Part shown: positions 23,248-42,274 of the stretch, one piece after another
How the letters are laid out: every line of letters starts with the position of its first letter
Position numbering within the stretch: position 1 is the stretch's first letter
Source of the DNA: Gammaproteobacteria bacterium
GTDB lineage: Bacteria > Pseudomonadota > Gammaproteobacteria > SZUA-229
Assembly: GCA_015488885.1 (NCBI GenBank)
Contig: WFMW01000028.1
Span: 63-64,062 of the forward strand
Length of the DNA: 64,000 bases
Direction: 5' to 3'
Notes under the pieces: generated by a model
What the model was told of the DNA's origin: nothing
What the model saw: only the letters and a program-made list of their open reading frames with translations
Database searches by the model: none
Translations under genes and position numbers: made by a program

Positions 23248-24669
<1,422 letters not shown>

Positions 24670-24739
24670 TCAACAAAAACAGGCAAGCTATTGCTGAATA
24701 GTTAATACTTGATTCAGGTAGTTGATAATTCCTGTCGTT

Positions 24740-25174
24740 TTAACCTTGAATATTTGGTGGCCAGCCATTTGTGTCGATTTCAGAGGCATATTTAAGAAAG
24801 GCAGCAATCGCTGAAAGCTGTTTTTCATTAAAATTAAACTGCGGCATACTGCGACGACCGGGAATGCCGTTTTTGGGTCGGCTTTTGATAAAGGCTTTAA
24901 TGGCATCAGTGCTGTTGCCAAAACGTTTGTAAACATTGCCTAGCTCTGGTGCGAAATAAGCGCCTTCGCCCAGTATGGTGTGGCAACCAATGCAATCGTT
25001 GTCTTCCCATATACGTTTACCCATGGCGACCTGTGGGGTAATAATCGCTTTGGCATTCTGTTTGGGAATGGCCTCACTGGTATCAACACTGAGTGCAATA
25101 AAAAGTAAAAAGAAAAACAGGCTACCACCATAAAAGATGTTACGCGCCATCGATTTTGTAAAAGTTTGCGACAT
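24740..25174 (-). CDS. norC: Nitric oxide reductase cytochrome c subunit
   Basis: FTKSMARNIFYGG, CIGCH, GEGAYFAPEL, RRSMPQF, WPPN. Confidence 0.97.
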   Translation of the reverse strand: MSQTFTKSMARNIFYGGSLFFFLLFIALSVDTSEAIPKQNAKAIITPQVAMGKRIWEDNDCIGCHTILGEGAYFAPELGNVYKRFGNSTDAIKAFIKSRPKNGIPGRRSMPQFNFNEKQLSAIAAFLKYASEIDTNGWPPNIQG

Positions 25175-25231: not shown

Positions 25232-25245
25232 ATGACTTAAGTCAA
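25232..25245. promoter_or_regulatory. FNR/DNR-type box proximal to norC
   Basis: ATGAC-TTAA-GTCAA, 57 bp upstream of the norC ATG. Confidence 0.7.
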
Positions 25246-25284
25246 GGCGTGATATTCAGGCTGTTTACGTGGTTTCAGAAAAAT

Positions 25285-25298
25285 TTGATTTAGGTCAA
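25285..25298. promoter_or_regulatory. FNR/DNR-type box in the norC-sgp divergent region
   Basis: TTGAT-TTAG-GTCAA, one mismatch to TTGAT-N4-ATCAA. Confidence 0.75.
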
Positions 25299-25465: not shown

Positions 25466-25912
25466 ATGATGAAAACTTTACTAGCAGCAACTGCAGCGGC
25501 AACCTTGCTGATAATTTCAACCTCTGCCAATGCCTGGTGGAACAACGGTGATAACTGGAACAATAACTGGAATAACAACGGTTATGGTAATGGCTATGGC
25601 AACGGTTATGGCGATGGCTATGGTGATGGTTCTGGCGATGGCTCTGGTGATATGGATGGTAGTTTTAATTTTGGTATGCATGCAAAAGGTCATGGCAACA
25701 GCCATTTTCGTGGTAACGGTTATGGTTATAACGGTTATAATGGATACAATGGCTGGAATGGTTATAACGGCTATAATGGTTATAATGGCTGGAACAACGG
25801 CTATTATAATCGGCCTTACTATGGCCCTTATTACGGTCCTGCACCTTATGGCCCACCGGCAGCTCCTGCTGCTCCAGCACCAGCAGCACCAGCTGCTCCA
25901 GCAGCAAAATAA
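25466..25912 (+). CDS. Sulfur globule protein (SgpA/SgpB-like)
   Basis: Signal peptide ..ANA/WW, Gly-Asn-Tyr repeats (NGYG, GYN), YYGPAPYGPP, Pro/Ala tail; sqr nearby. Confidence 0.8.
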   Translation: MMKTLLAATAAATLLIISTSANAWWNNGDNWNNNWNNNGYGNGYGNGYGDGYGDGSGDGSGDMDGSFNFGMHAKGHGNSHFRGNGYGYNGYNGYNGWNGYNGYNGYNGWNNGYYNRPYYGPYYGPAPYGPPAAPAAPAPAAPAAPAAK

Positions 25913-26060: not shown

Positions 26061-26074
26061 TTGACCTATGTCAA
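26061..26074. promoter_or_regulatory. FNR/DNR-type box upstream of nrdJa
   Basis: TTGAC-CTAT-GTCAA, perfectly dyad-symmetric half-sites. Confidence 0.75.
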
Positions 26075-26099
26075 TTAAATTCGTTAGTATTGGCCTAAC

Positions 26100-26146
26100 A
26101 TACAACATCTACCAAATAATAATTATAATATAACTATATATTGTGG
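26100..26146. promoter_or_regulatory. Tandem NrdR boxes upstream of nrdJa
   Basis: tACAACATCTacc and aACTATATATTGTGG, 31 bp apart; resembles the acaCwAtATaTwGtg consensus and typical spacing. Confidence 0.6.
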
Positions 26147-26197
26147 TTTGTCTCTAATTTAGAGATAACTGCTATATTGGTTGGGAAGGTACAATTT

Positions 26198-28360
26198 ATG
26201 ACTATTGCTACAAAAAACGAAACCTTAACACTTAATCATCAGCACCTTAATATTGCCATGCAACCAGCTGCACAGGATATTTGGGAGCGAAAATATCAGC
26301 TTAAAAACAATAAGGGTGAAGTGGTTGATCTGTGTATTGAAGCCACCTTTACCCGTGTTGCCCAGGCACTTGCAGAAATAGAAACCACTGCAGAAAAACA
26401 ACAGTACTGGTATAAGGAGTTTCTCTGGGCGCTAAAAAATGGTGCCATTCCTGCAGGCCGAATTATTTCCAATGCCGGGGCACAGACTTATAAACCGGCT
26501 ACTTCAACGATAAACTGTACCGTTTCAGGGAAGATTCATGATTCAATGGATGATATTTTAAGCAAGGTTCAGGAAGCTGGCATGACTTTGAAATCCGGTG
26601 CCGGCATTGGTTATGAATTTTCAACCTTAAGACCGGCTGATGCCTATGTTTCCGGTTCGGGGGCACGCACTTCAGGGCCGTTATCCTTTATGGATATTTA
26701 TGACAGGGTCTGTTTTACCATTTCTTCAGCAGGGGGTCGCCGGGGCGCACAGATGGCAACCTTTGATATTGGTCATCCCGATGTGGTTGATTTTATCCGC
26801 GCCAAACGTGAGGATGGCCGCCTGCGCCAGTTTAATTTATCCTTATTGATCAGCCGTGAATTTATGGAAGCGGTTAAAAGCGCATCACCCTGGCCACTGG
26901 CATTTCCACTAACTGAAGAAGAAGCAAAAAGCAATCATCTTGATTGCCAGGATCCCACTCAGGTCGTCTGGCGTGACTGGCCGATAAGCGATAACTATAT
27001 CGTCAACAATGTGGGGAAAGTCGCCTGTCGTATTTATAAAAACATTGATGCTGCCCGTTTGTGGGATACCATCATGACATCAACTTATGACTATGCAGAA
27101 CCCGGTTTTATTCTTATTGATCAGTATAATACAATGAATAATAACTGGTTCTGTGAAAATATCCGTACCACTAATCCTTGCGGTGAACAGGGTTTGCCCG
27201 AATACGGTGCCTGTTTGCTAGGGTCTATCAATCTTACCCAGCTGGTTAGTTTCCCGTTTACCGACAGAGCCAGTTTTGACTGGAGTCGTTATCGGAAAAT
27301 AATAAAAATATTTACCCGTATGCTGGATAATGTTGTTGAGATCAACGGCTTACCACTTACGCAACAACGTGATGAAATTATCAACAAACGTCGTCATGGT
27401 ATGGGTTATCTTGGCCTTGGTTCTGCATTGACCATGCTGGGTCTGCGTTATGGTGATGATGAATCTTTACAGTTTACCGAAAAAGTCAGTCGCGAACTGG
27501 CTTTAGCTGGATGGGAAACGGCACTGGAGCTGGCCAGGGAAAAAGGGGCAGCGCCTGTTCTGGAGCAGGATTTTACGGTTACCACTGAAATGCTCAACAA
27601 ACGCCCAGAAATGCAACAAGATGGCTGGAATGTCGGTGATAAAATCAAGGGTAAAATCCTGCATGCCCGCTATAGTCGTTATATGCAGAAAATAGCCAGC
27701 ATCAACCCAGAGCTGGTTAAGGCACTGGAACAAACCGGCGCCCGTTTCACCCATCATAGTTCGATTGCGCCAACCGGCACCATTGCTTTATCCATCGGCA
27801 ATAATGCCAGTAATGGTATCGAGCCGAGTTTTGCCCATCATTATGCGCGAAATATTATTCGTGAAGGCAAAAAATCCAAGGAAAAAGTTGATGTCTGGTC
27901 GTATGAACTGCTGGCCTACCGTGAGTTAATAAACCCCGGGGCAAAACCGTTTGCCGAATCGAAAGATGAAAAACTACCCGATTATTTTATTTGCGCTGAT
28001 GACGTCACCCCCAGACAGCATATTGATATTCAGGCTGCTGCACAGACCTGGATCGACTCATCTATTTCAAAAACAGCCAATATTCCCACTGATTACCCCT
28101 ATGAAAAATTCAAGGATATTTATCTTTATGCCTATGAAAAAAAGCTGAAGGGCTGTACCACATTCCGCTTCAATCCGGCAGCCTTTCAGGGCGTACTGGT
28201 GAAGGAAAAAGATCTTAAAAATACCAGCTATCAGTTTACCCTTGAAGATGGTTCAAAAGTTAAGGTGAAAGGTGATGAAGAAATCCGTTATGACGGTGAA
28301 TTACACACTGCGGCAAATTTATATGATGCTTTAAAAGAAGGTTATTACGGTAAATTTTAA
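26198..28360 (+). CDS. nrdJa: Adenosylcobalamin-dependent (class II) ribonucleotide reductase, split large part
   Basis: PAGRIISNAG, TINCTVS, GGRRGAQM, TNPCGEQ, CLLGSINL, SIAPTGT, KGCTTFR; ATG 26198 after GGAAGG. Confidence 0.93.
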   Translation: MTIATKNETLTLNHQHLNIAMQPAAQDIWERKYQLKNNKGEVVDLCIEATFTRVAQALAEIETTAEKQQYWYKEFLWALKNGAIPAGRIISNAGAQTYKPATSTINCTVSGKIHDSMDDILSKVQEAGMTLKSGAGIGYEFSTLRPADAYVSGSGARTSGPLSFMDIYDRVCFTISSAGGRRGAQMATFDIGHPDVVDFIRAKREDGRLRQFNLSLLISREFMEAVKSASPWPLAFPLTEEEAKSNHLDCQDPTQVVWRDWPISDNYIVNNVGKVACRIYKNIDAARLWDTIMTSTYDYAEPGFILIDQYNTMNNNWFCENIRTTNPCGEQGLPEYGACLLGSINLTQLVSFPFTDRASFDWSRYRKIIKIFTRMLDNVVEINGLPLTQQRDEIINKRRHGMGYLGLGSALTMLGLRYGDDESLQFTEKVSRELALAGWETALELAREKGAAPVLEQDFTVTTEMLNKRPEMQQDGWNVGDKIKGKILHARYSRYMQKIASINPELVKALEQTGARFTHHSSIAPTGTIALSIGNNASNGIEPSFAHHYARNIIREGKKSKEKVDVWSYELLAYRELINPGAKPFAESKDEKLPDYFICADDVTPRQHIDIQAAAQTWIDSSISKTANIPTDYPYEKFKDIYLYAYEKKLKGCTTFRFNPAAFQGVLVKEKDLKNTSYQFTLEDGSKVKVKGDEEIRYDGELHTAANLYDALKEGYYGKF

Positions 28361-28380
28361 TCTTTATGCTGACGACTGCT

Positions 28381-28488
28381 GAAATAAATGGGAAGCCTTG
28401 TTCAAAACACGCTGTAAATATATCCATGTAGGCTCGACACCCGCATCCATGCGGCTGATGGTCTTGAACAAGACTCCCCATTTATTTC
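28381..28488. repeat. CATGGATG hairpin element (REPIN-like), copy A
   Basis: 78-nt core 28395-28472 is 71/78 identical (reverse complement) to 33471-33548; outer arms GAAATAAATGGG / CCCATTTATTTC. Confidence 0.85.
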
Positions 28489-28533
28489 TACCTCAGTAGT
28501 AAAACATAAAACCATACACAAAGGGTGGCTACC

Positions 28534-29277
28534 ATGACAGTAGAAATAGATAAAAAGATTATTGCCTATGATGTCATCAAGGATGAAGACGATGTCGGAC
28601 AGGCTGATGTAAAAACCGATACGGATAATGCTGACGGTAAAAGAACTGAAGAAAAACAGGCTTCGGCAGAAATCATCCAGATGCATGAAAAACTCCAGCG
28701 TCCTGAACAGTTGCTGGGTTCAACCTACAAGATAAAAACCCCTCAGTCTGAACACGCTGTTTATGTGACCATCAATGATATTTTGCTCAACCCCGGTACC
28801 GCCTATGAAATGCGCCGACCTTATGAAATATTCATCAACTCCAAGAATATGGATCATTTTCAGTGGATTGTTGCGCTGACCCGGATTATATCTGCGGTAT
28901 TCAGAAAGGGCGGTGATGTCACTTTCCTGGTTGATGAATTACGTAGTGTGTTCGACCCGAGAGGCGGTTACTTTAAAAAAGGCGGAAAATACAAATCGTC
29001 ACTGGTTGCTGAAATTGGTGATGCTATCGAATGTCATATGAAAATGATTGGCATGATTGAAGAAGATGTGATGGATGATTGCCAGAAAGAAATTCTACAG
29101 GCGAAACGCAAAGAATATGAAACCATCCATCACAAAGGTAAGAATACTCAGGATGGTGAATTGCCGACTGCATTTCCACCAACTGCCCAGTTGTGTAAAA
29201 AGTGTCATACAAAAGCGGTGATTAGTATGGATGGCTGTATGACCTGCCTTAACTGTGGTGATTCAAAATGTGGTTAA
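28534..29277 (+). CDS. nrdJb: Class II RNR C-terminal subunit NrdJb
   Basis: YKIKTP..EHAVYVTIND, EIFINSK, ELRSVFDPRGGYF, C-terminal CKKC...GCMTCLNCGDSKCG. Confidence 0.92.
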   Translation: MTVEIDKKIIAYDVIKDEDDVGQADVKTDTDNADGKRTEEKQASAEIIQMHEKLQRPEQLLGSTYKIKTPQSEHAVYVTINDILLNPGTAYEMRRPYEIFINSKNMDHFQWIVALTRIISAVFRKGGDVTFLVDELRSVFDPRGGYFKKGGKYKSSLVAEIGDAIECHMKMIGMIEEDVMDDCQKEILQAKRKEYETIHHKGKNTQDGELPTAFPPTAQLCKKCHTKAVISMDGCMTCLNCGDSKCG

Positions 29278-29286
29278 ACACGAATA

Positions 29287-29300
29287 TTGATCCAGGTCAT
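29287..29300. promoter_or_regulatory. FNR/DNR-type box upstream of the TIGR01212-ubiU unit
   Basis: TTGAT-CCAG-GTCAT, 57 bp before the TTG start at 29358. Confidence 0.6.
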
Positions 29301-29357
29301 GTTATATACTGGTTGATTACTGGATAATACCTCGTTTAAGTCACTCTGGTTGTTATT

Positions 29358-30332
29358 TTGAATCTTGCCCAGTATGTCAATACTTTTGGTCAGTACCTGC
29401 TTCAGCGTTATGGCGAGCGGGTTCATAAAGTGGCCATTGATGCCGGCTTTACCTGTCCAAACCGTGATGGCAGTATTGGGCGTGGTGGCTGTAGTTTCTG
29501 TAATAATGTTTCGTTCAGTCCCAATGGTCGTCAGACTGGTTTAATGGATAAACAAATTATTGCCGAGCAAATTGAAGCGGGTAGACAGGTCATTCGTAAG
29601 CGTACTGGAGCAAAAAAATATATTGCTTATTTTCAGGCCTATACCAATACCTATGCTGATACGCAGGCATTGGCCAGATTGTATGAACTGGCCTTAACCG
29701 AAATCGATGTGATTGGACTGGCCATCGGTACACGGCCGGACTGTGTGGCCGATGACTTACTGGATCTGCTGGTAGCCTATCAGCAGCAGGGCTATGAGGT
29801 CTGGCTTGAACTGGGTCTACAGTCGGCGTTTGATGCAACCTTAAAACGCGTCAATCGTGGGCATGGTTTTGCTGAATATGAACAGACATTATTAAAAGCG
29901 CGTGCGCGTGGCTTAAAAGTATGCACGCATCTGATTCTCGGCCTGCCGGGCGAGAACAGCCAGCATTACCAGCGTTCCTTGCAACGGGTACTCGAACTGG
30001 GGGTTGATGGACTTAAATTTCATCCCTTGCATGTGGTTAAAGGTACTCGGCTGGCCAATACATGGCGGCATGGTGAATATCGACCGCTGACACTGGATGA
30101 TTATGTGAATAACGTGGTTGAACTGGTGAAACAAACGCCAGATGAGGTTATCTTTCATCGGCTTACGGGTACTGCGCCGACCAATATTTTACTGGCACCA
30201 TCATGGTGTACAAAAAAATGGCTGGTGCTAAATAAAATCACTGCTTTACTTGCCGGGCAGACAGGCGATAACCATTCTAATCGTCAGCATCAGATAATCA
30301 CAGCAAAAAAGTTATCATTATCAACAATGTAA
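29358..30332 (+). CDS. yhcC: TIGR01212/YhcC-family radical SAM protein
   Basis: DAGFTCPNRDG..GGCSFC, AYFQAYTNTYA, IGTRPDC, ELGLQS, HLILGLPGE. Confidence 0.9.
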   Translation: MNLAQYVNTFGQYLLQRYGERVHKVAIDAGFTCPNRDGSIGRGGCSFCNNVSFSPNGRQTGLMDKQIIAEQIEAGRQVIRKRTGAKKYIAYFQAYTNTYADTQALARLYELALTEIDVIGLAIGTRPDCVADDLLDLLVAYQQQGYEVWLELGLQSAFDATLKRVNRGHGFAEYEQTLLKARARGLKVCTHLILGLPGENSQHYQRSLQRVLELGVDGLKFHPLHVVKGTRLANTWRHGEYRPLTLDDYVNNVVELVKQTPDEVIFHRLTGTAPTNILLAPSWCTKKWLVLNKITALLAGQTGDNHSNRQHQIITAKKLSLSTM

Positions 30333-30375
30333 TCAACGATCAATTATTATCAATCAACAGCCAAGAGTTAGAGTT

Positions 30376-31371
30376 ATGCAACTTGTTTGTCCAGCGGGAA
30401 ATTTACCTTCATTAAAAGCTGCCGTCGATAATGGTGCCAATGCCGTTTATATGGGGTTTAAGGATGATACCAATGCGCGTCATTTTGCCGGGTTGAACTT
30501 TGATGACAGACGTGCACAGGAAGGTATTGAATATGCCCATAATCATGGCGTGAAAGTATTTATTGCCATTAACACCTACCCGCAACCTTCAGGCTGGCAA
30601 CGCTGGCAGGAAGCGGTGGATCATGCTGCCGGGCTGAATGTGGACGCCTTGATTCTGGCCGATATTGGCGTTATGGATTATGCCAGTGAACGCTGGCCAG
30701 AACTGCGTTTACATCTGTCGGTACAGGGTTCTGCGACCAGCGCCGAGGCCATCGAATTTTATTCTCAGCGCTTTGCTATCAAACGAGTGGTATTACCGCG
30801 GGTATTGTCGCTGAAACAGGTTAAACAGGTGGCAGAAACCAGCCCGGTGCCAATCGAGGTTTTTGGTTTTGGTAGTTTATGCGTGATGGTAGAAGGGCGA
30901 TGTATGCTGTCTTCCTATGTGACCGGTCGTTCACCCAATACTTATGGTGCCTGTTCACCCGCCAATGCGGTTAGCTGGAATGAAACCCCGAACGGGCTGG
31001 AAACCAGGCTGAATAATATTCTGATAGACCGTCACGGTGAAGGTGAATCGGCGGGTTACCCTACTTTATGCAAAGGTCGCTTTAATGTTAATGCAAATAC
31101 CTATTATGCCATTGAAGAGCCGACCAGTTTGAATACCATGGCAATATTGCCAGAATTACAGGCAGTAGGTGTGGCGGCGATAAAAATTGAAGGTCGCCAG
31201 CGTAGTCCAGCGTATGTCAAACAGGTGGCAAAAGTATGGCGTGCCGCGCTGGATGCCTGTGAGAAAAATCCGCAGCATTATCAGCCTCAGGCAGACTGGC
31301 TGGCGGCGCTGGAAAAAGTCTCCGAAGGCTCACAGACTACATTGGGAGCCTACCATCGTCCCTGGCAGTAA
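30376..31371 (+). CDS. ubiU: O2-independent ubiquinone hydroxylase subunit UbiU (U32 family)
   Basis: LVCPAGN, TNARHFAGLNF, FGSLCVMVEGRCMLSSY, GACSPA, YPTLCKGRF, KIEGRQRSPAYV. Confidence 0.93.
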   Translation: MQLVCPAGNLPSLKAAVDNGANAVYMGFKDDTNARHFAGLNFDDRRAQEGIEYAHNHGVKVFIAINTYPQPSGWQRWQEAVDHAAGLNVDALILADIGVMDYASERWPELRLHLSVQGSATSAEAIEFYSQRFAIKRVVLPRVLSLKQVKQVAETSPVPIEVFGFGSLCVMVEGRCMLSSYVTGRSPNTYGACSPANAVSWNETPNGLETRLNNILIDRHGEGESAGYPTLCKGRFNVNANTYYAIEEPTSLNTMAILPELQAVGVAAIKIEGRQRSPAYVKQVAKVWRAALDACEKNPQHYQPQADWLAALEKVSEGSQTTLGAYHRPWQ

Positions 31372-31395
31372 TACGGGTATTTACCATAATTAACT

Positions 31396-31464
31396 TGTAA
31401 CTACTCAGCTAACCGGTGAAATGAGCAGTTACTGTTACATTTGACTACTCACTGAGTAGTTACA
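31396..31464. mobile_element. 69-bp MITE with TGT...ACA termini and 6-bp target duplication
   Basis: TGTAACTACTCAG...CTGAGTAGTTACA perfect 13-bp TIR; TTAACT on both sides; right 43 bp identical to the 17762 copy. Confidence 0.85.
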
Positions 31465-31504
31465 TTAACTTTATAGAAGAGCAATACTTATAACTCAGAC
31501 AATT

Positions 31505-32470
31505 ATGACTCAGACAATAAAATCTCTGCCTAAATTATCACTCGGGCCAGTTCTGTATTACTGGCCACGTGAACAGATATTCGATTTTTACCGGACGATA
31601 GCACAAACGCCGGTTGATGTTGTTTATCTTGGTGAAACCGTTTGTGCAAAACGGCGCCTGATGAAACCGGATGACTGGCTACAGGTTGCACGGATACTCA
31701 CCGAAGCGGGCAAGGAGGTGGTGCTGTCTACATTAACCCTGCTGGAAGCAAATTCAGAGCTTAGTTCATTGCGTAAAATCTGTAATAACAGTCAATATAT
31801 GGTTGAGGCCAATGATATGGCTGCCGTGCAGATAGTATCCGCCCGTCAATCATCTGACAATAAAGGCTTTGTAACCGGCCCTGCGGTTAATATCTATAAT
31901 TCCCGAACCCTTGAAGTGTTAGCAAAGGCAGGCTTAAAACGCTGGGCACTACCTGTGGAATTGTCCCTTGAAACATTGACCGAACTGCATCAAAACCGGC
32001 CTGCAGGACTTGAAACAGAAGTTTTTGTTTTTGGTCGTTTGCCACTGGCGTATTCGGCGCGCTGCTTTACTGCACGCGCCCATAATCTGCCCAAAGATGA
32101 CTGTCAGTTTCGCTGTCTGGATTATCCCGATGGTCTGCTGTTATCCACTCGTGAAGATGAATCGTTTCTGGTTCTGAATGGCATTCAAACACAGTCGGCA
32201 AAAACGCAGAATTTACTGACTGAGCTTAATAATCTTATTGAACTTGATATTGATGTATTACGTATCAGTCCGCAGTCCACGCATACTGACAAAATTATTG
32301 CTGTTTTCAACGATTGTCTGCATGGAAAACAGGCTATTGACGAAGCAGAAAAATGGTTACAGCACTATATCCTTACCGGCGAGTGTGATGGCTACTGGCA
32401 TAATCAGCCAGGTATGGATAAAACGGTAATAGATAAAACTATAATGGATGCCGCATTAAATACTAAATAA
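31505..32470 (+). CDS. ubiV: O2-independent ubiquinone hydroxylase subunit UbiV (U32 family)
   Basis: LSLGPVLYYW, YLGETVCAKR, LAYSARCFTAR, KDDCQFRC, NGIQTQS, CDGYWH. Confidence 0.93.
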   Translation: MTQTIKSLPKLSLGPVLYYWPREQIFDFYRTIAQTPVDVVYLGETVCAKRRLMKPDDWLQVARILTEAGKEVVLSTLTLLEANSELSSLRKICNNSQYMVEANDMAAVQIVSARQSSDNKGFVTGPAVNIYNSRTLEVLAKAGLKRWALPVELSLETLTELHQNRPAGLETEVFVFGRLPLAYSARCFTARAHNLPKDDCQFRCLDYPDGLLLSTREDESFLVLNGIQTQSAKTQNLLTELNNLIELDIDVLRISPQSTHTDKIIAVFNDCLHGKQAIDEAEKWLQHYILTGECDGYWHNQPGMDKTVIDKTIMDAALNTK

Positions 32471-32515
32471 TGACAATTCTTTGAGTAGCTACAACTCTTA
32501 TAGTGGTATAAAAAA

Positions 32516-33439
32516 ATGAAAACATCAGCACTTGCACGCAATCCATTTAATGATCAATACAAAATTGGTACACCCTTTGACCTGGATGACGAGCCTGCCT
32601 ATCAGTCATGGGTAGAAGAAAAAATGGACAATTATCCACAGCATATTGAGGATATTATTGTTGAAGTTGCTAACCCGGCTGATTTATCAACAGCGGAAAT
32701 AGCGCGAATAACACAGCTGTGCAAAAAGACCAATATGGTTATTTACGCAGGCAATACCGGTACGGATGACGACAAGGAAATACCCACCAGGCTTGGTCGT
32801 CAGTTCAAGCTGTATTTAGCAGATAACAACAGGGGCGCTGATGATGGTATAACTGCACTCAGGGTGGTAAACGACGAATGGCGCAGTGAATATATTCCCT
32901 ATACTAATCATCTGATTCACTGGCATACCGATGGCTATTATAATGCTATGAATTATCAGATTCGGGCACTTTTGCTGCATTGTGTTCAGCCGGCATCCAG
33001 CGGTGGTGAAAACGCACTGCTGGATCATGAAATTGCCTATATCCATCTGCGTCAGAAAAATCCGGCATATATTCGCGCTTTAATGGCCGCAGACGCAATG
33101 ACCATACCGGCTAATATCAATAAACAGGGCGAGATCATTCGACCCGAACGTTGTGGCCCGGTTTTTTCTGTGGATGCTGATGGCAAACTGCATATGCGTT
33201 ATACTGCACGTACCCGTAGTATCATCTGGAAAGATGACGACATAACCCGACAGGCCGTGAAACAGCTTGCTGATTTTCTAGCATCGGATTCACCTTATAT
33301 TTTTCGCGGTACCTTGCAATCTGGCCAGGGGCTAATTAGTAATAATGTATTACATGATCGTTCGGCCTTTGAAGAAACGGGCGATACCCGCCGCTTGCTG
33401 TATCGACTGCGTTATTTTCAGCGTATTGCCGCTACCTGA
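32516..33439 (+). CDS. TauD/TfdA-family Fe(II)/2-oxoglutarate dioxygenase
   Basis: HWHTDGYY (HxD), LLHCVQPASSGGEN, NNVLHDRSAF, RLLYRLRY. Confidence 0.82.
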   Translation: MKTSALARNPFNDQYKIGTPFDLDDEPAYQSWVEEKMDNYPQHIEDIIVEVANPADLSTAEIARITQLCKKTNMVIYAGNTGTDDDKEIPTRLGRQFKLYLADNNRGADDGITALRVVNDEWRSEYIPYTNHLIHWHTDGYYNAMNYQIRALLLHCVQPASSGGENALLDHEIAYIHLRQKNPAYIRALMAADAMTIPANINKQGEIIRPERCGPVFSVDADGKLHMRYTARTRSIIWKDDDITRQAVKQLADFLASDSPYIFRGTLQSGQGLISNNVLHDRSAFEETGDTRRLLYRLRYFQRIAAT

Positions 33440-33453
33440 GGTTTTTATTAACC

Positions 33454-33563
33454 CGGCGATAAAGCCTTGCCTTGCTCAAGACCGTCAGCCGCATGGATGC
33501 GGGTGTCGAGCGTACATGGATGTATTTACAGCGCGTCTTGAGCAAGGCAAGGCTTTATCGCCG
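33454..33563. repeat. CATGGATG hairpin element (REPIN-like), copy B, between convergent units
   Basis: 29-bp perfect inverted repeat 33454-33482 / 33535-33563 enclosing two CATGGATG hairpins. Confidence 0.88.
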
Positions 33564-33591
33564 TTCAATTAATCAAATAAGCACACTGGCT

Positions 33592-34086
33592 TTAGCCAAA
33601 CAAGCGCTCGTAAACGGGCAGGCTTTTTTGCAGAATAGATTCAAGCAACGCCGATATTTTATGTGAATCCATATCCATGCCATCAAGAAAGTTTTTCACA
33701 TATAAACCCAGTTCAGTATCGCCCTGCATATGTAGACGTCGGCTGAAAAACAGGGTGTCGGTATCTTCGCGCCGACTGGCAAGTAGCAGGTAGTTATAGA
33801 CAGTTCCCTGAAGTATCACATCGGCAGAACGTCTGCTGTCAGCAATGACAAGTTTATTATTGTTCAGGCTGAAGCCGTATTTTATGCCGGCATCTTCAAT
33901 AATAATATGAATAATTTTTCCCTGCAGAAAGTCCAGTTCGCCATTATTTAATTCCTGATGGAAGAGTCGGTTGAGGCTTGTTATCAGCACTCTGTTATGG
34001 ATAAAAGCCGGCATATACTTCAGCGGCAAGGCCAGCGGAGCAGGCAATAATGGCTGTGGTTGTGCTGATGGCTGTGATCGTTGCAT
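33592..34086 (-). CDS. ubiT: SCP2-domain lipid carrier UbiT
   Basis: GELDFLQGK, LLASRREDTDTLFFSRRLHMQGDTELGLYVKNFLD; next to ubiUV. Confidence 0.9.
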   Translation of the reverse strand: MQRSQPSAQPQPLLPAPLALPLKYMPAFIHNRVLITSLNRLFHQELNNGELDFLQGKIIHIIIEDAGIKYGFSLNNNKLVIADSRRSADVILQGTVYNYLLLASRREDTDTLFFSRRLHMQGDTELGLYVKNFLDGMDMDSHKISALLESILQKSLPVYERLFG

Positions 34087-34121
34087 GAGATTCTCTCTTC
34101 TAAAATTCAGGGTTACAGGTG

Positions 34122-34694
34122 TCAGAGATTCCTTAACCAGTATTCATGGATGCGAGTATCGCCGCTTAATTCGGGATGAAACGACAAAGCTAAATGCCTG
34201 TCTGCCTGAATCATGACGGCTTCATTTTTATAGCAGGCGAGGATTTTTACCTGTGGTGCCATGTCCGTGATACCGGGCGCACGAATAAAAGTGGCCGGAA
34301 AAGCGTTTCCATTAAAGTCACTGTCTGCCAGTTTGATCGCCGTGGTAAAACTGTGAACCTGACGTCCATAATGGTTACGTAAAGCTTTAAACGGGATAAG
34401 CCCAAGAGGTTCAACCCGTTTATCATCCACCTCCGTGGCCATCATAATCATGCCCGCACACACGCCCATTACCGGGTGAGAAGCAGCGAAGATTTTAATC
34501 GCTTCGTATAAGTCATATTGCTGTATCAGTAGACTGATGGTAGTGGATTCGCCACCAGGTAAAATCAGTGCTGCACAGTTTTTCAGTTCTTCAGGCCGAC
34601 GAACCAGTACCGGCGTAATCCTCAGTGCCGATAAAGTATCCACATGTTTCTGGTAAGCACCCTGCAGGGCAAGGATGCCAACAGTTTTACGCAT
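34122..34694 (-). CDS. pdxT: PLP synthase glutaminase subunit
   Basis: GILALQGAY, LILPGGESTT, GVCAGMI, RNHYGRQ, FIRAP, SFHPEL; ATG at 34694. Confidence 0.95.
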   Translation of the reverse strand: MRKTVGILALQGAYQKHVDTLSALRITPVLVRRPEELKNCAALILPGGESTTISLLIQQYDLYEAIKIFAASHPVMGVCAGMIMMATEVDDKRVEPLGLIPFKALRNHYGRQVHSFTTAIKLADSDFNGNAFPATFIRAPGITDMAPQVKILACYKNEAVMIQADRHLALSFHPELSGDTRIHEYWLRNL

Positions 34695-34749
34695 TGTGTT
34701 CCGGGTTTCCTGATTGATTATGACAGATTTATCATTGCGGCTTGAGCAT

Positions 34750-35643
34750 TTACCAGCCACGTGCGGCGAGGCGTTCATCTTCAGGGATCTCTGACATTTC
34801 CAGACCTTTCATGCCAGCTTGCAGGCCACGACTAACCTCAAGTAAAACAGTCGGGTCATCAAAATAGGTGGTGGCTTTGACAATTGCCCGGGCACGCGCA
34901 GCCGGATCGTCCGATTTGAAAATGCCCGAGCCGACAAACACCGCTTCTGCGCCTAATTGACGAACCAGGGCAGCATCGGCGGGGGTAGCAATGCCCCCGG
35001 CAGAAAAATTGGGAACCGGTAATTTACCATGTTCGGCAACATAACAAACCAGATCGTAGGGTGCGCCCATGTCTTTGCTGATAGACATTCGTTGCTCTTT
35101 TGATACGGTTGTCAAACGCTGCATTTCATTTTGCAGGGCACGCATATGGCGTACCGCTTCAACAATATTGCCGCTGCCAGCTTCACCTTTGGTACGTATC
35201 ATGGCTGCGCCTTCACCAATACGGCGCAGGGCTTCACCCAGGTTTGTGGCACCACAGACAAACGGCACGGTAAAATCGCGCTTGAAAATATGGTTACTTT
35301 CATCTGCCGGTGTCAAGACTTCGGATTCGTCTATAAAATCAACTTCGAGTGCCTGCAAAATCTGTGCTTCAGCAAAATGCCCGATCCGGCATTTTGCCAT
35401 CACCGGTATAGAAACCGTCTGCTGAATTTCTTCAATCATTTTCGGGTTGGACATGCGCGCCACACCACCGTCACGGCGAATATCAGCGGGAATCCGTTCC
35501 AGTGCCATCACTGCACAGGCACCGGCATCTTCAGCAATTTTTGCCTGCTCCGCATTGGTAACATCCATAATTGCGCCGCCCTTAAGCATTTCGGCAAGAC
35601 CAATTTTTACTGAAAAATCATTTTGTTGAGTATCATTGTTCAT
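34750..35643 (-). CDS. pdxS: PLP synthase lyase subunit
   Basis: [58 protein letters not shown]. Confidence 0.97.
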
Positions 35644-35724: not shown

Positions 35725-37320
35725 TTAATGACTGGTACCTGCTGAACGATGGATTTTATTATAAACATTATATTTGCCTACCGGTTTGCTCATTGGCAGA
35801 CGTTTGACAATTTTAAAGGTTTTTGTGTCATAAACGATAACTTCACCTTTATTTTCCCAGATGCTTAGCAATGCCCGACTGCCGTCACGATTAAATTCTA
35901 TGTGTCCTGAGGTTTTGCCGGGATCCGGGTTGAGGGTTTTAACAATTTTGAGGGTGCGTTTATCAATAATATGTACTTCGTCTTTATGCGGACCGACAAA
36001 AACATCCACCCAGGCATAGGGGGTGTTTTCATGGCTGCGGATAAAAAAGCCGGGGCCATCGGTTTTAATTTTTTTGATAGTTTTCCAGGTGTGCATATCG
36101 ATAACTGTTACCAGACCTTTACGCAGGTTAGGGGTAGCAAGTACCGTGGTATTTTTGTATTTCCAGGTGATGCCTGAACCTAAATGTGGCATTCCAGGCA
36201 GGTCAATATCGGCAATTTTTTTGCCCACGATAAGGTCAACAACCTGGCCTTTTTTGCCGGTGCGTGAAGCACCAATAAGATATTCATAAGACTGGTCAAA
36301 AAAGAAATCATCCAGATAATCGTGCAGTTTTATCCGCCGTATGGGGAATTTTCCGGTTTCTGCCAGGCCTTCACCAGAGCGATAGTCATGCACATAACCG
36401 GGATAAATTTTTGGCGGGTGATCGCTGTAATTAATTTCCCAGACTTCTTTTATATCTTTTAAGGCCACAATGAAACTGTGCCGGGGTGGTGCGGTATAGA
36501 CAGCGCTAACCCGTGATGAGTGGCCTTCATCATCTTTAACGTCGATGACTTTTATCAGGCTAAGGTCACGGGCATCGAGGATTACCAGTGTGTGGGGCAG
36601 GGTATTACCAACCAGTACGTAACGGTCATCCGCAGACACGGCGGCATTACGGGTATTGATGCCAGCGCGAATTTCAGCCACTGTTTCCAGCGTGTACATA
36701 TCAAACTTGCTAATCCAGCCATCACGTGAAGCAAAATATACATAGCGTCCAGTGGAAGAAAATTTAGGCCCGCCATGCAGTGCAAAACGTGATTTAAAGC
36801 GTTTAATGGGCACCATTTTATCGCCATCAAGCACGGTCACATGGTGGTCGCCACTTTCCACAACCAGAAACAGATTTAGCGGGTCGGCACTGTAAACCGG
36901 TTTAACATTTTTGGCATTGCTGCGTGCAAAGGCTTTCTTATAAATGATATGGCTATGGTTAATTTCTTTTTTACCCCATACGGGAATGTGGGGTAAGGGG
37001 GTATATATTAAATTAACCAATGCCTGTATCTGTTGATCATTTAATTTATCAGCATAGCCAGGCATCTGAGTGGCAACTCGACCATATTTGATTACTGCAG
37101 GAGCCTTAGTTTTTTTTAGGCGCTGTAGATTTTCTGGTAACAGAGCCGGGCCAGTTTCACCGAGTCGATCTTTACCGTGGCAACTGGAACAATATCTGGC
37201 AAATAACTGTCGGGCAGATAAGTTGCTGTTGGCAGATTGTGCAAAAACTAGCCATGGCTGACAGGTTGTGAGGAAAATAACAAAAAATAGAAGCTGTTTC
37301 TTCATGGTGTGCTTATTCAT
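35725..37320 (-). CDS. nirN: Heme d1 biosynthesis dehydrogenase NirN (cytochrome c plus d1 beta-propeller)
   Basis: CSSCHG, ALHGGPKF, PHLGSG, KPVGKYNVYNK; last nir gene. Confidence 0.9.
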   Translation of the reverse strand: MNKHTMKKQLLFFVIFLTTCQPWLVFAQSANSNLSARQLFARYCSSCHGKDRLGETGPALLPENLQRLKKTKAPAVIKYGRVATQMPGYADKLNDQQIQALVNLIYTPLPHIPVWGKKEINHSHIIYKKAFARSNAKNVKPVYSADPLNLFLVVESGDHHVTVLDGDKMVPIKRFKSRFALHGGPKFSSTGRYVYFASRDGWISKFDMYTLETVAEIRAGINTRNAAVSADDRYVLVGNTLPHTLVILDARDLSLIKVIDVKDDEGHSSRVSAVYTAPPRHSFIVALKDIKEVWEINYSDHPPKIYPGYVHDYRSGEGLAETGKFPIRRIKLHDYLDDFFFDQSYEYLIGASRTGKKGQVVDLIVGKKIADIDLPGMPHLGSGITWKYKNTTVLATPNLRKGLVTVIDMHTWKTIKKIKTDGPGFFIRSHENTPYAWVDVFVGPHKDEVHIIDKRTLKIVKTLNPDPGKTSGHIEFNRDGSRALLSIWENKGEVIVYDTKTFKIVKRLPMSKPVGKYNVYNKIHRSAGTSH

Positions 37321-38576
37321 GGTAATACACGGTGGCCTTTAGCCGGTTTGTTTGGGTTAATTTGTCTCGACCATGGTGTCAGTTGTAAACGGTTTTGTTG
37401 TTTATCCACCCCAATCTCTGCATTAGATAAATAACAGCCCGGATCTTCTGCCCAGAAATTACCTGTTAACTGCCATGCGCGTGTGCGTGAATTGCCACCA
37501 CAGATGCGCAGAAATGAGCAATGTGCACAGCGTCCTTCGACTGGCCGTGAGGTTTGTTTAAGACCTGCCATTAGCGGGTCAGAAGTATCTGACCAGATTT
37601 GTGAGAAAGGCCGCTGTTTGATATTACCAATTGTATAATCCCACCACATCGTATCAGGATGGACATTACCGATATTGTCAATATTGGAAATATTAACCCC
37701 TGATGCATTTCCACCCCAGTTGTTCAACAGGTGGTGAATTTTTTCAGCATATTGAGGCAGGTGTTTTTTTACCCATAAAAGCAGATAAACGCCATCGGCA
37801 TCATTATTTCCAGTAACAAACTCCCGTCGTTTCGTTGTACCTTTATTAAACTCAATCACGTCATTCCAGCAGGTTTCAAATAAAAGATCCATTGCCTCTC
37901 GTGTCATTTTATGGTGCAGGTCATTACTGCGATTTTTATTGCCACGACCAGCATAATTAAGATGCGATAGATAAAATTTGTCAATTGCTTCGTCTTTCAT
38001 TAACTGTAACAAAGCAGGCAAATCCTGCTGGTTATCCTGAGTCAGGGTAAAACGCAGGCCAACTTTAATGTCAGCATCATGGCACAGACGTATGCCGTGT
38101 AAGGCTTCATTATAGGCCCCCTGCTTACGGCGAAATTTATCATGGGTTTCAGGTTTGCCATCAATACTGATGCCTACATAGTCATAGCCAACCTGTTCGA
38201 TTTTTTTGATATTATCTTTATTAATCAGTGTTCCATTGGATGACAGACCAACATAAAAACCCATGTTTCTGGCACGGTGAGAAATGTCAAAGATGTCCGG
38301 GCGCATCAAGGGTTCCCCACCGGAAAGGATAAGCACACGTACACCGTAGGCTTTCAGGTCGTCCATTACCCGATAAACAGCAGCTGTATCCAGCTCATCG
38401 GGAAAAATTTTATCTGCCGATGTGGCATAACAATGTTTGCAGGTAAGGTTACAACGCCGGATTAAATTCCAGATAACAACTGGCCCAGAAGGTTTAGCCG
38501 TTATAGCAGGTTTAACGGCATCTGGTGCAGGTGTTTTATTGTTCAGCTGATACAGGTACTGGCTTAATCGAAACAT
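37317..38576 (-). CDS. nirJ: Heme d1 biosynthesis radical SAM protein NirJ
   Basis: MFRLSQY, IWNLIRRCNLTCKHCY, YLSHLNYAGRG, GNNDADG, EDPGCYL. Confidence 0.95.
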   Translation of the reverse strand: MFRLSQYLYQLNNKTPAPDAVKPAITAKPSGPVVIWNLIRRCNLTCKHCYATSADKIFPDELDTAAVYRVMDDLKAYGVRVLILSGGEPLMRPDIFDISHRARNMGFYVGLSSNGTLINKDNIKKIEQVGYDYVGISIDGKPETHDKFRRKQGAYNEALHGIRLCHDADIKVGLRFTLTQDNQQDLPALLQLMKDEAIDKFYLSHLNYAGRGNKNRSNDLHHKMTREAMDLLFETCWNDVIEFNKGTTKRREFVTGNNDADGVYLLLWVKKHLPQYAEKIHHLLNNWGGNASGVNISNIDNIGNVHPDTMWWDYTIGNIKQRPFSQIWSDTSDPLMAGLKQTSRPVEGRCAHCSFLRICGGNSRTRAWQLTGNFWAEDPGCYLSNAEIGVDKQQNRLQLTPWSRQINPNKPAKGHRVLP

Positions 38577-38590
38577 GGCTTATTATCATT

Positions 38591-39592
38591 TCAGGCAGCA
38601 AGGCGCATACCGGTTTTTTTGAGAATGGCAGAACTGAAGAGAATGTCCGATGACTGGCAGTGACTACCCAGCAATGTTTTTATCTGCTGTGTTTTTTCCA
38701 TTACTTCATCTTTGTTATGCCCATGCACCATGGCAAATAGATTATAGGGCCACATGGGTAAATGTTTTGGCCGCTGGTAACAGTGGCTGACAAAATTTAG
38801 TTTGCCTGTTATTTTCCCCATTTCCATTAATTTATCATCATTAACATTCCACACGGTCATCCCGTTTGCACTAAGACCCAGTTTATAATGATTGGGCACT
38901 GCGCCAATACGACGGATAATGCCACAGCTTAACATTTGTTTTAAACGTTGTATTACCATCGTTTCAGTTAGGCCAATATTTTCTGCAATACGACAATAAG
39001 GTGTTGGTTCAATCGGTAAGCCAGTTTGTGTCGCACGAATCAATTTTTTATCTATTTCGTCGATGTGATAAACAGATGGTGGAGGCGAGTCATTAGTGAC
39101 TGGTTTGCTGTCAATTTTAATGGTACTGGCGCACCCTGATGATGACAAATGTAACCATAAACCGATATAAAATTCATGCTGTTTGGGAAAGTTATAAACC
39201 TTGAGGCCAGTTTTCTGTTCAATTTCAGTCAGTATGGTCGTGATTTCTACAGCTGTTTGTGTCGCTAAAACAAACCACATATTCAGTGTATGTTCACGTC
39301 GGTAATTATGAGCAACCTGTGGATAAGCATTAATTAACTCAGTCACCATTGTGTAGCGATCAGATGGCACTGATATTGCGGCCAGTGTTAAATTTCCACC
39401 AAGATGGTCTGCATTATATAAAGGACCAAAACGTGTCAGATATCGACGAATTTTTAGTTTATTAACGGTTTCGATTAATTCATCCTGATCACAGTCAAGC
39501 TGTTTTGCCAGCTGTCTGAATGGGTTTTTTGTTAAAGGAAAATTACCCTGACAGGTATTAATAAACTGGCGCTCAAGTGTATTCAGTTGCAT
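38591..39592 (-). CDS. nirGH: Siroheme decarboxylase NirG-NirH fusion
   Basis: N-half AhbA-type (RFGPLY..GGNLTLAA, VAHNYRREH..NMWFV); C-half AhbB-type (IRRIGAVPNHYKLG, HCYQRP, WPYNLFAMVHG). Confidence 0.85.
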   Translation of the reverse strand: MQLNTLERQFINTCQGNFPLTKNPFRQLAKQLDCDQDELIETVNKLKIRRYLTRFGPLYNADHLGGNLTLAAISVPSDRYTMVTELINAYPQVAHNYRREHTLNMWFVLATQTAVEITTILTEIEQKTGLKVYNFPKQHEFYIGLWLHLSSSGCASTIKIDSKPVTNDSPPPSVYHIDEIDKKLIRATQTGLPIEPTPYCRIAENIGLTETMVIQRLKQMLSCGIIRRIGAVPNHYKLGLSANGMTVWNVNDDKLMEMGKITGKLNFVSHCYQRPKHLPMWPYNLFAMVHGHNKDEVMEKTQQIKTLLGSHCQSSDILFSSAILKKTGMRLAA

Positions 39593-40199
39593 TGTTTATA
39601 CTCATTTTTTCAGATTTAACCAGATGCAGACGGTTTTTATGGCCATGAGGGTTTGATTGTTTACTGTTGCAATGGCTATCCTGAGTATAGCTGGCACCAC
39701 GTTGTTTGAAACGACGAGTACTGAATAGAATGTTATGGTTGATGGATTGCAGGCCGCATTTTTCTACTATCTCAGTCACCTTTTGTTTAACTTCTTCTCT
39801 ATTGCTGCCATGTACCATGGTAAATAAATTATATGGCCACTGAGGCAAATGGCGAGGACGGTGATAACTGAGGGTTACACAGGCATATCTGCCAATACAG
39901 GTACCTAGTTCATCGACTTTATCATCTGCTATATCCCATACCACCATGCCGTTTGCATGGTAACCGAGTTCTTTATGGCGAACCACCACGCCATAACGTT
40001 TAATCACTCCAGTGGTGATTAACTGCTGTATGCGTTCAATCACTTCCTGTTCAGTAACATTAAGCTGGCTGGCGATTTTTGCGTAGGGACGATGACAAAT
40101 AGGCAGACCATGTTCAACACATTTAATGAGAGCATAATCACCGGGATTCATTGGTATAATCGTTTTATTTGAATGTGGTCTGTTATCAAAATTAAGCAT
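39573..40199 (-). CDS. nirL: Siroheme decarboxylase subunit NirL
   Basis: KRYGVVVRHKELGY, RPRHLPQWPYNLFTMVHG, FSTRRFKQRGA. Confidence 0.88.
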   Translation of the reverse strand: MLNFDNRPHSNKTIIPMNPGDYALIKCVEHGLPICHRPYAKIASQLNVTEQEVIERIQQLITTGVIKRYGVVVRHKELGYHANGMVVWDIADDKVDELGTCIGRYACVTLSYHRPRHLPQWPYNLFTMVHGSNREEVKQKVTEIVEKCGLQSINHNILFSTRRFKQRGASYTQDSHCNSKQSNPHGHKNRLHLVKSEKMSINNATEYT

Positions 40200-40674
40200 G
40201 TTTATACGCCCACTTAAGTTCAAAACCCAGGTCAATAAAGTAGTCCTCCAGCATAGGCAAAGACATTAGCGAGTATTGTGTCTGTAGCTCAATGTCATGC
40301 AGGACAATATTCAACTGCTCTTCATTCGCTGCCGTTACCACAAACCAGAGATTGTATTCATGCTCACGTTCATAATTATGATTAACCTCAGGAAATGCAC
40401 TGATAATATGCGCGACAGGCTCCAGCTCATGCTCTGGTACTGACATTGCAGCCAGGGTACTGACGCCTATTCTATTGGGACGGAATACTGGGCCAATGCG
40501 ACTGATATAACCATTTTCCTGTAATAACTGCATGGATGCAATAACTGTTTCTTCAGTCACACCCAGTTGTCTGGCCATATCAGCAAAGGGCGTAGCGGAT
40601 AATGGCATATCACGTTGAAAATCATTCAACAGGTGCTGTTCAAGATCGCTTAGCTGGTGGTCTGCACCGTTCAT
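40192..40674 (-). CDS. nirD: Siroheme decarboxylase subunit NirD
   Basis: LLNDFQRDMPL, SRIGPVF, STLAAM, VNHNYEREH.YNLWFV. Confidence 0.88.
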   Translation of the reverse strand: MNGADHQLSDLEQHLLNDFQRDMPLSATPFADMARQLGVTEETVIASMQLLQENGYISRIGPVFRPNRIGVSTLAAMSVPEHELEPVAHIISAFPEVNHNYEREHEYNLWFVVTAANEEQLNIVLHDIELQTQYSLMSLPMLEDYFIDLGFELKWAYKHA

Positions 40675-40675
40675 T

Positions 40676-41878
40676 TTATAAGCCTGTCTCATGAGCGCGA
40701 GAAGTTAGAAATATACCACTGGGCTTCCTGGCTTTAATGCTGCTATCCAGCCTGTAGGTATCGGTGTTATAAACATTAACGCGATTTTTGTCGCGTACAG
40801 AAACCCACACCTCTTCACCGCGTGGTTCAAATGCCATATGCAAAACCCCTTTACCGGGTACCAGTGTTTTCACTATCTTTAAAGTTTCGGTATTAATAAC
40901 CTGTACCGTGTCATTTCTGGGTACGGCAAAATTTACCCAGACATAATGGCCATCGGGTCTGGCCATAACAAAAATAGGTTGGCCATGTACCGGGATACGT
41001 CCAGCTTCGGTCCAGTTTTGTGTATTGATAACCAGAACTTCATGGTGACCAACGGCCGGTACAAAAGCACGGTCACCGGCAATGGTCCAGCCTTCAAGAT
41101 GGGGCATTTTATAGACGGGTAATTTTTTTTCACCTTTTCCATAATGGTTAAGAATACGTTTAACACCTTTATTAATATGCCATAAATCCAGCATTGCCAT
41201 GCCATCTTCACCAAACAGACCGGCAATATAATAACGGCCATTGGGTGTAATCAGTGCATCATAGGGATTCTTGCCAATATTTTTGAATTTGGTAATACGT
41301 GGTTTATTATGGTTTTTAGCCAGCGCCTGTTTTGAAAAATCTGCTATCCATATCTGTCCGGCATCCCACAGGCTGAAGACAAATTTTTCGCCTGGGGCAT
41401 CAACCAGTCCAACGACTTTTGAACGTTTGCCCGAGTTACCATAGCTTGCCGGTATATCGGCAACTAGTTCTAATGTTTTTGAGTTAAATACCTTTACGCC
41501 ACCCGGTGTATAATTGGATACCGCAATCAGACGGCCATCCTGAGAAATAGCACCACCGATACTGTTGCCAGACTGGATAATGCGTTTAACAATTTTATGC
41601 GCCAGCATATCTATTTTTGTAAGACCACCATCACGACCAAAAATATAGGCAAATTTTTCATCTCGTGAATAAACCACTGTCGCATGCGACAGGTCACCCA
41701 TGCCGGTGATACGGGCAAGGCTGGTATTGTGTGTGGTTTCTATAATTTGTATCGAACCCGTTGCGCGTTCGATAACAACACCCAGATCACCCGTACCACG
41801 CTGAGCAAAGGCATTAAAACTGAGTAAAATGCTTACTACCACAAAACACAGGCGTTTTATTTGTCGTTGCATTAGCAT
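40676..41878 (-). CDS. nirF: Heme d1 biosynthesis protein NirF
   Basis: RGTGDLGVVIER, DLSHA, FGRDGG, PVYKMPHLEGW, KPSGIF; ATG overlaps the nirC stop. Confidence 0.92.
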   Translation of the reverse strand: MLMQRQIKRLCFVVVSILLSFNAFAQRGTGDLGVVIERATGSIQIIETTHNTSLARITGMGDLSHATVVYSRDEKFAYIFGRDGGLTKIDMLAHKIVKRIIQSGNSIGGAISQDGRLIAVSNYTPGGVKVFNSKTLELVADIPASYGNSGKRSKVVGLVDAPGEKFVFSLWDAGQIWIADFSKQALAKNHNKPRITKFKNIGKNPYDALITPNGRYYIAGLFGEDGMAMLDLWHINKGVKRILNHYGKGEKKLPVYKMPHLEGWTIAGDRAFVPAVGHHEVLVINTQNWTEAGRIPVHGQPIFVMARPDGHYVWVNFAVPRNDTVQVINTETLKIVKTLVPGKGVLHMAFEPRGEEVWVSVRDKNRVNVYNTDTYRLDSSIKARKPSGIFLTSRAHETGL

Positions 41879-42210: not shown

Positions 42211-42218
42211 AACTAAGT

Positions 42219-42250: not shown

Positions 42251-42274
42251 CCCGTTTACCTTCTACCTGAGGTG

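Follow-up and report, generated by a model that had tools for sequence, protein, structure and literature searches.

The window analysed here, a 64,000-nt stretch of DNA, comes from contig C28. The genome, 2.63 Mb in size and with a completeness rating of 100%, belongs to a denitrifying, sulfur-oxidising gammaproteobacterium whose relatives are uncultured marine metagenome-assembled genomes (MAGs), and encodes reverse dissimilatory sulfite reductase (rDsr) genes, a sulfur-globule protein, nirS, norCB and nosZ. In this work, we examined a block of nine genes of the window with predicted roles in biosynthesis at low oxygen, situated between norCB (23248-25174) on the left and, on the right, a complete minus-strand string composed of nirS, a cytochrome c gene, nirF, nirD/L/G/H, nirJ and nirN (35725-44017). 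By their layout these genes are predicted to form three transcription units, namely nrdJa-nrdJb (unit 1), yhcC-ubiU-ubiV followed by an oxygenase gene (unit 2) and, on the other strand, pdxS-pdxT-ubiT (unit 3), the latter reading in the same direction as the nir string, which lies directly upstream of it; nnrS (44337-45530, plus strand) is divergent from nirS. Profile searches recovered all nine genes where a first-pass annotation had placed them, with identities above curated cut-offs. Throughout, G000 denotes the window's genome, other G-numbers its relatives, L-numbers public MAGs or loci, and C-numbers the contigs of G000.

Unit 1 encodes a split, adenosylcobalamin-dependent class II ribonucleotide reductase. 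Its large piece is the product of nrdJa (26141..28360, plus strand; PF02867; TIGR02504 at 545.6 bits against a cut-off of 399.95), the true start of which is probably the ATG at 26198, and its C-terminal piece that of nrdJb (28525..29277, plus strand), which carries a PF12637 TSCPD domain and a Cys-rich tail and matches positions 579-759 of NF006417, i.e., the C-terminal 180 positions of that model. An Rfam scan of the window returned neither a B12 riboswitch nor any other RNA family. The same genome carries a class Ia nrdAB pair on C17, in agreement with the proposal that NrdJ is an alternate to the O2-requiring enzyme, and NrdD was not detected in the complete genome, which leaves NrdJ as its only O2-independent reductase.

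Unit 2 opens with yhcC/mnmL (29358..30332, plus strand; TIGR01212, 369.4 bits against 180), whose product retains the three cluster-binding cysteines Cys33, Cys45 and Cys48 in a C33-x11-C45-x2-C48 arrangement. The TIGR01212 model is now named MnmL/YtqA in NCBIfam, and the enzyme is a radical SAM (S-adenosylmethionine) protein that converts 5-carboxymethylaminomethyl-2-thiouridine (cmnm5s2U) of tRNA to 5-aminomethyl-2-thiouridine (nm5s2U) without O2; in Escherichia coli, FNR activates its gene, and under anoxia it takes over this demodification from MnmC, the O2-dependent oxidase (bioRxiv 10.64898/2026.05.18.725915). The first-pass annotation had listed it as an unassigned enzyme and a candidate for an undescribed oxygen-switch step; the oxygen link is borne out by that report, which also means that the step is no longer undescribed. 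The E. coli model, with MnmL as an anaerobic alternate beside MnmC, does not carry over to this genome, where no MnmC oxidase domain was detected (the best TIGR03197 match, at 85.8 bits against a cut-off of 174.2, is ThiO), so that MnmL looks like the sole enzyme for the step.

The next two genes, ubiU (30376..31371, plus strand; NF047963, 569.7 bits against 440) and ubiV (31505..32470, plus strand; NF047965, 404.9 bits against 275), match the models for the O2-independent ubiquinone hydroxylase subunit and its partner subunit, and ubiT (33592..34086, minus strand; NF047962, 136.2 bits against 46.9) matches that for the SCP2-type accessory factor of the UbiUV pathway. Cys169, Cys176, Cys193 and Cys232 of UbiU are invariant in the alignment, and UbiV carries Cys47, Cys187, Cys200 and Cys204; we take these two four-Cys sets to correspond to the [4Fe-4S] ligand positions of the E. 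coli proteins. The O2-dependent counterparts coexist in the genome, as two adjacent UbiH/I-type monooxygenases (TIGR01988, 413 and 411 bits) and Coq7 (152 bits), and UbiUVT can thus be regarded as an alternate set, as had been supposed. In P. aeruginosa (Pseudomonas aeruginosa), UbiUVT is reported to be essential for denitrification (bioRxiv 10.1101/2020.03.22.002311).

Unit 3 comprises, besides ubiT, the genes of the two-subunit pyridoxal 5'-phosphate (PLP) synthase: pdxS (34750..35643, minus strand; NF003215, 501.6 bits against 395) and pdxT (34122..34778, minus strand; TIGR03800, 186 bits against 105.6), the latter encoding the glutaminase subunit. The family match of PdxT begins at residue 33, and hence its true start is probably downstream, with no overlap with pdxS. 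From ribose 5-phosphate, glyceraldehyde 3-phosphate and glutamine, the PdxST complex forms PLP by a direct route in which no oxidase takes part, and it had been proposed as an O2-independent backup for the PdxA/PdxJ/PdxH route. This proposal fails for the present organism, as neither G000 nor either of the two same-genus genomes has pdxJ (PdxH, by contrast, is present), which makes PdxST the sole de novo PLP route. Among 41 genomes compared, pdxJ and pdxST occur together in five (G003, G011, G013, G020 and G023), PdxST alone in six including G000, PdxJ alone in most others, and neither in two incomplete genomes. To carry both de novo routes in one genome is uncommon, and the distribution looks as if PdxST was acquired first and PdxJ then lost by some lineages.

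Sites of the form TTGAY-N4-RTCAA, the consensus for Anr/Dnr sites of P. aeruginosa (PMC4860495), were found in the promoter gaps of the region. A perfect palindrome of this type, TTGACCTATGTCAA (26061..26074), precedes nrdJa, and a box with one mismatch, TTGATCCAGGTCAT (29287..29300), precedes yhcC; both sites of the first-pass annotation are real, the former perfect and the latter imperfect yet conserved in relatives. Another perfect box, TTGATTTAGGTCAA (25285..25298), lies in the divergent gap between norC and the sulfur-globule-protein gene, and two more (44065-44078 and 44127-44140) in the divergent nirS/nnrS promoter gap, so that the window holds 4 perfect boxes where 0.48 are expected, all of them within the norC/sulfur-globule-protein, nrdJ and nirS/nnrS promoter gaps. 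The whole genome holds 38 perfect boxes, of which 27 fall between genes, where non-coding DNA makes up ~12% of the sequence (P about 6e-17). Among the genes 3' of these boxes are nosZ, nirS, nnrS and norC, as well as those for a MiaB-type radical SAM enzyme and for several cytochromes c. As a side observation, perfect boxes also occur 5' of genes for PEP (phosphoenolpyruvate) synthase/PPDK (pyruvate, phosphate dikinase), class I fructose-bisphosphate aldolase, glucokinase and transketolase (G000 C7:3653-9967, C12:62716, C49:2997), which suggests that central carbon metabolism lies within the same low-oxygen regulon. Likewise, the sulfur-globule-protein gene and norC (window 25232-25298 / 25466-25912) have a common upstream gap with one perfect and one one-mismatch box, so that low O2 or nitric oxide (NO) may influence the making of the globule coat as well.

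Both boxes of the block have counterparts in relatives. The nrdJa-upstream box was found in 6/6 relatives, and the yhcC-upstream box at the same position in 10 of the 11 related loci of a first set, in 14 of 16 family loci, and, in a wider survey, at 12/21 loci against a background of 4.9%; in relatives it often reads TTGAT-N4-RTCAT and lies about 60-90 nt upstream of yhcC. Class II activation is characterized by a box centre about 41.5 nt upstream of the transcription start. The sequence offers a TAACAT -10-like hexamer at 26096-26101, which would set the centre of the 26061 box near -41 to -41.5, and a GATAAT -10-like hexamer at 29323-29328, which would set that of the 29287 box at about -41.5; with start sites predicted in this way, both boxes would be placed for class II activation. 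Candidate regulators are encoded elsewhere in the genome: an FNR/ANR orthologue (C17:16461-17216) with a C-x2-C-x5-C...C pattern and an ETVSR recognition helix, a DNR-like paralog (C18:29211-29918) with ETFSR and no Cys cluster, and a third FNR-family member on C48, all three having an E--SR recognition helix.

Tested promoters of model bacteria provide the analogy for these sites. In P. aeruginosa, the Anr/Dnr box of PnrdJ is required for anaerobic induction (PMC4860495), and in E. coli Fnr activates ubiUV, already in the microoxic range, while ubiT is under separate control and has an additional constitutive promoter (PMC10470549). On this basis, units 1 and 2 are very probably FNR/Anr/Dnr-activated; for the block as a whole, co-regulation is inferred from sequence features only. 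For unit 3 the link would be a different one, given that no FNR-type box lies upstream of pdxS in G000: pdxS begins 81 nt 3' of nirN, with no terminator between them (the promoter/terminator scan performed at chance level and was used solely for this absence), and G020, from another genus, has the same nirJ-nirN-pdxS-pdxT-ubiT string. A one-mismatch FNR-type site was observed 80-155 nt upstream of pdxS in L083, L084 and L126, and none before pdxS in the three PdxST-only genomes of the window's genus.

The order nrdJab, yhcC-ubiU-ubiV-TauD and, on the opposite strand, ubiT-pdxT-pdxS is kept in both same-genus genomes, in G003 and in the public MAGs L011 and L013, and G020 resembles the window at both ends, with norCBEQ divergent from nrdJ on one side and nirJ-nirN before pdxS on the other. 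The clustering is therefore not unique to this genome and recurs in other genera. At a broader scale, yhcC was found directly upstream of ubiU in 26 of the 80 UbiU loci surveyed, with carriers in Sedimenticolaceae, Ca. Thiodiazotropha, Chromatiaceae, Thiolapillus and a Nitrosomonadales MAG, and in none of the surveyed loci of Pseudomonas, Stutzerimonas and Enterobacterales. The yhcC-ubiU-ubiV operon thus has a wide distribution among sulfur-oxidising Gammaproteobacteria, and nearly all members of the family to which the window's organism belongs have ubiUV and yhcC; no such operon was found in the literature searched, and the YhcC preprint (bioRxiv 10.64898/2026.05.18.725915) does not mention ubiU.

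The last gene of unit 2 (32516..33439, plus strand) encodes a 307-aa TauD/TfdA-family Fe(II)/2-oxoglutarate oxygenase (PF02668, 75.8 bits against 27) and begins 45 nt past ubiV, with no terminator between. The H137/D139/H280 triad, together with R293 and R297, is invariant across 22 sequences (homologues 49-67% identical); in the TauD/TfdA family a downstream Arg serves 2-oxoglutarate. Since the full triad is present, the enzyme should need O2 and should be a working, O2-consuming hydroxylase. The first-pass annotation had named this "dioxygenase", within a block of O2-independent replacement pathways, as a candidate for an undescribed oxygen-switch step; the intact HxD...H iron triad speaks against a role as an O2-independent replacement. 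A confident structure model with a pLDDT (predicted local distance difference test score) of 88.8 gave BBOX1, TmpA and CsiD/GlaH as best fold matches at 17-21% identity, the fold search overall being informative at family level (12-21%), and a PDB sequence search returned no match; metagenomic homologues number more than 8000 and bear generic names only. Hypotheses on its substrate were considered. A third O2-dependent ubiquinone hydroxylase was rejected, as Coq7 and two UbiH/I-type enzymes leave no need for one. An O2-dependent cmnm5s2U demodifier in place of the absent MnmC, through TfdA-type N-CH2-COOH cleavage, is chemically attractive but was weakened on two counts, namely the acidic character of the family (isoelectric point, pI, of 5.3-6.4 in 19/22 members, unlike typical tRNA-binding enzymes), which makes a tRNA substrate unlikely, and L141, in which the oxygenase accompanies ubiUV with no yhcC. 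Our best guess, held with low confidence, is a small-molecule hydroxylase working at very low O2; control of such an enzyme by an FNR-type box would be consistent with the microoxic conditions under which E. coli Fnr already activates ubiUV (PMC10470549).

All 25 family genomes examined carry at least one copy of this oxygenase gene, most of them two. The second copy of G000 (C57:21418-22275, 47% identical) divergently adjoins dsrABEFHCM, which is the arrangement for which Lenk et al. 2012 (cited through PMC7596348) introduced the name dsrQ, a tauD-like gene that diverges from dsrA in chemotrophic sulfur oxidisers; sulfite release from sulfonates has been speculated for DsrQ, which has no tested function (PMC7596348). 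The C57 copy has this arrangement and the block copy, which follows ubiV, does not. In a maximum-likelihood tree, 17/17 ubi-linked copies group with 7 relocated ones in a single clade (98/91 support) apart from the dsr-linked copies. Both types have the HxD...H motif; they differ in their location, block-type copies standing after ubiV or ubiD rather than beside dsr. Ubi-linked copies follow ubiV directly, follow an intervening ubiD in 8 loci, or elsewhere are divergent from yhcC, and the relocated copies have no consistent neighbour save recurrent hemerythrin genes. Hemerythrin-domain genes adjoin an oxygenase of the ubi clade in L014, L018, L023, L038 and L045, which hints at O2 sensing or delivery under low oxygen tension. 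Among the top-ranked literature matches on UbiV and ubiquinone biosynthesis, no mention of TauD was found. Separately, the dsrQ-type copy of G000 is followed (C57:16600-27700) by a small open reading frame, a stand-alone Cas6-like gene (PF09559) and genes for a DsrC/TusE-like protein, a PiuC-like Fe/2OG (2-oxoglutarate) hydroxylase and a DUF6866 protein, all divergent from dsrABEFHCM, a set that recurs in Thiohalophilus and Chromatiales loci.

Taken together, these findings make it probable that the block is a lineage-conserved low-oxygen biosynthesis cluster of three transcription units, in which the boxes would switch units 1 and 2 with denitrification. As O2 falls or NO appears, a [4Fe-4S] form of the FNR/ANR orthologue, the DNR-like paralog, or both, would bind the boxes ~41 nt upstream of the predicted starts, and units 1 and 2 would be switched on along with nirS, norC, nosZ and nnrS. 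Deoxyribonucleoside triphosphates (dNTPs) would then be made through the B12 radical chemistry of NrdJ instead of by the O2-requiring class Ia NrdAB, ubiquinone precursors would be hydroxylated by UbiUV instead of by Coq7 and the UbiH/I flavoenzymes, and the wobble cmnm5s2U would be demodified by the radical SAM enzyme. Unit 3 would supply UbiT and PLP, continuing the nirS-to-nirN operon; PdxST, as the only PLP synthase in the genus, must be expressed in air too, and a constitutive promoter is therefore probable for this unit, with transcription added by putative read-through from the nir operon.

All parts of this scheme but one are known from model bacteria, and what we describe is a new arrangement of known regulon members, with no new mechanism. 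A close likeness is to the Anr/Dnr regulon of P. aeruginosa, which shares the split NrdJa/NrdJb, the same box consensus and a class Ia reductase besides (PMC4860495), and whose members nrdJab, ubiUVT (PA3911-3913), nir and nor are here packed physically, the biosynthetic genes between nor and nir. The surveyed Pseudomonas and Stutzerimonas loci, unlike the present one, hold ubiUVT without a yhcC, pdxST or TauD-like neighbour, and P. aeruginosa has NrdD (PMC5645315), whereas the window's genome does not. E. coli UbiU and UbiV have the Fe-S cysteines that are conserved here. Enterobacterial loci have ubiT in divergent orientation to ubiUV and no adjoining yhcC, whereas here yhcC heads the ubiUV operon and ubiT is joined to pdxST, and E. 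coli YhcC stands in for an MnmC whose oxidase was not found here. In comparison with PdxST of Bacillus and archaea, the match is at equivalog level, but the bearer is a gammaproteobacterium whose relatives mostly use PdxJ, and its pdxST follows nirN in an operon-like string with ubiT. The well-identified parts match the behaviour of their E. coli and P. aeruginosa counterparts, and the gain accordingly resides in the organisation and in the candidates it offers. In these gradient-dwelling sulfur oxidisers, the anabolic side of the aerobic-anaerobic switch (dNTPs, quinone and wobble modification) would be bundled physically with the respiratory enzymes it serves, and the findings lend genomic backing, independently obtained, to the anaerobic role recently reported for YhcC/MnmL. 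Two leads emerge as well, namely the two-PLP-route relatives in which pdxST is wired to nir, and an uncharacterised clade of DsrQ-type oxygenases that accompanies anaerobic ubiquinone genes.

Several observations weigh against a common low-oxygen programme, and some of them favour the alternative that the block is a mere neighbourhood of independently regulated units, in which pdxST and perhaps mnmL are housekeeping genes and which came to lie between nor and nir through rearrangement of small, gene-dense genomes, not through selection as a module. PdxST and MnmL are, or appear to be, sole copies, and so neither of these functions amounts to an oxygen switch in G000; replacement of an O2-dependent counterpart, the reading of the block given by the first-pass annotation, thus holds for NrdJ and UbiUVT (2/5 functions), applies to MnmL in its chemistry only, and does not extend to PdxST here or to the oxygenase. 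The lack of a box before pdxS points in the same direction, as does the count of one-mismatch boxes in the window (19 against 11 expected), which is near chance and lessens the weight of the yhcC box, and a presumed O2-requiring enzyme inside an anaerobically induced operon is odd. The content and flanks of the block also differ among genera: G023 lacks yhcC and the oxygenase, G019 has only nrdJab and pdxTS, without ubiUV, adjacency to nir was found only in G000 and G020, and ubiUV(T) stands alone in most UbiU-bearing genomes surveyed. Nevertheless, several genera keep the order nrdJab/yhcC-ubiUV/ubiT-pdxTS, with proteins that are 60-88% identical, pdxST and ubiT are paired again in the distant MAG L146, two of the units are preceded by conserved boxes, and in G020 nirN and pdxS are likewise neighbours, about 39 nt apart. 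We consequently regard independent regulation as unlikely, although it retains some weight, and prefer the conserved low-oxygen cluster.

A more ambitious reading, which we consider improbable, is that the cluster holds two undescribed oxygen-linked steps jointly, with PdxST coupled to denitrification and the ubi-linked DsrQ paralog acting as an O2-using partner or backup. PdxST may have been transcribed with nir, alongside PdxJ/PdxH, in the relatives that keep two routes, and may later have become the sole route in the window's genus; the DsrQ paralog, if of high affinity for O2, may back the oxygen-sensitive UbiUV or MnmL at the microoxic boundary, sometimes beside a hemerythrin gene. Horizontal transfer of the entire block at once, as an 'anaerobic island', is very improbable, for although PdxST is patchy (11/41 genomes of the family; five of the 11 also have pdxJ, a coexistence that an acquisition would produce) and elements resembling REP (repetitive extragenic palindromic) sequences or MITEs (miniature inverted-repeat transposable elements) lie inside it, its G+C content (0.43-0.47) and skew are the same as those of the flanks and give no compositional signal, neither an integrase nor a tRNA border was noticed, the repeats are not block-specific, with about 15 copies genome-wide, and, with ubiUV and yhcC near-universal in the family, at most pdxST was imported.

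The two palindromic elements of the block look like members of a REP/MITE-type family and form no part of the low-oxygen module. One, of about 108 nt, occupies the nrdJa-nrdJb gap (28381..28488), and the other, with 29-nt perfect arms, lies between the convergent TauD-like and ubiT genes (33454..33563); they are in opposite orientation, share a 78-nt core that is 91% alike, and have each their own terminal arms of 28-29 nt. The copy at 33454-33563 may well serve as a bidirectional terminator.

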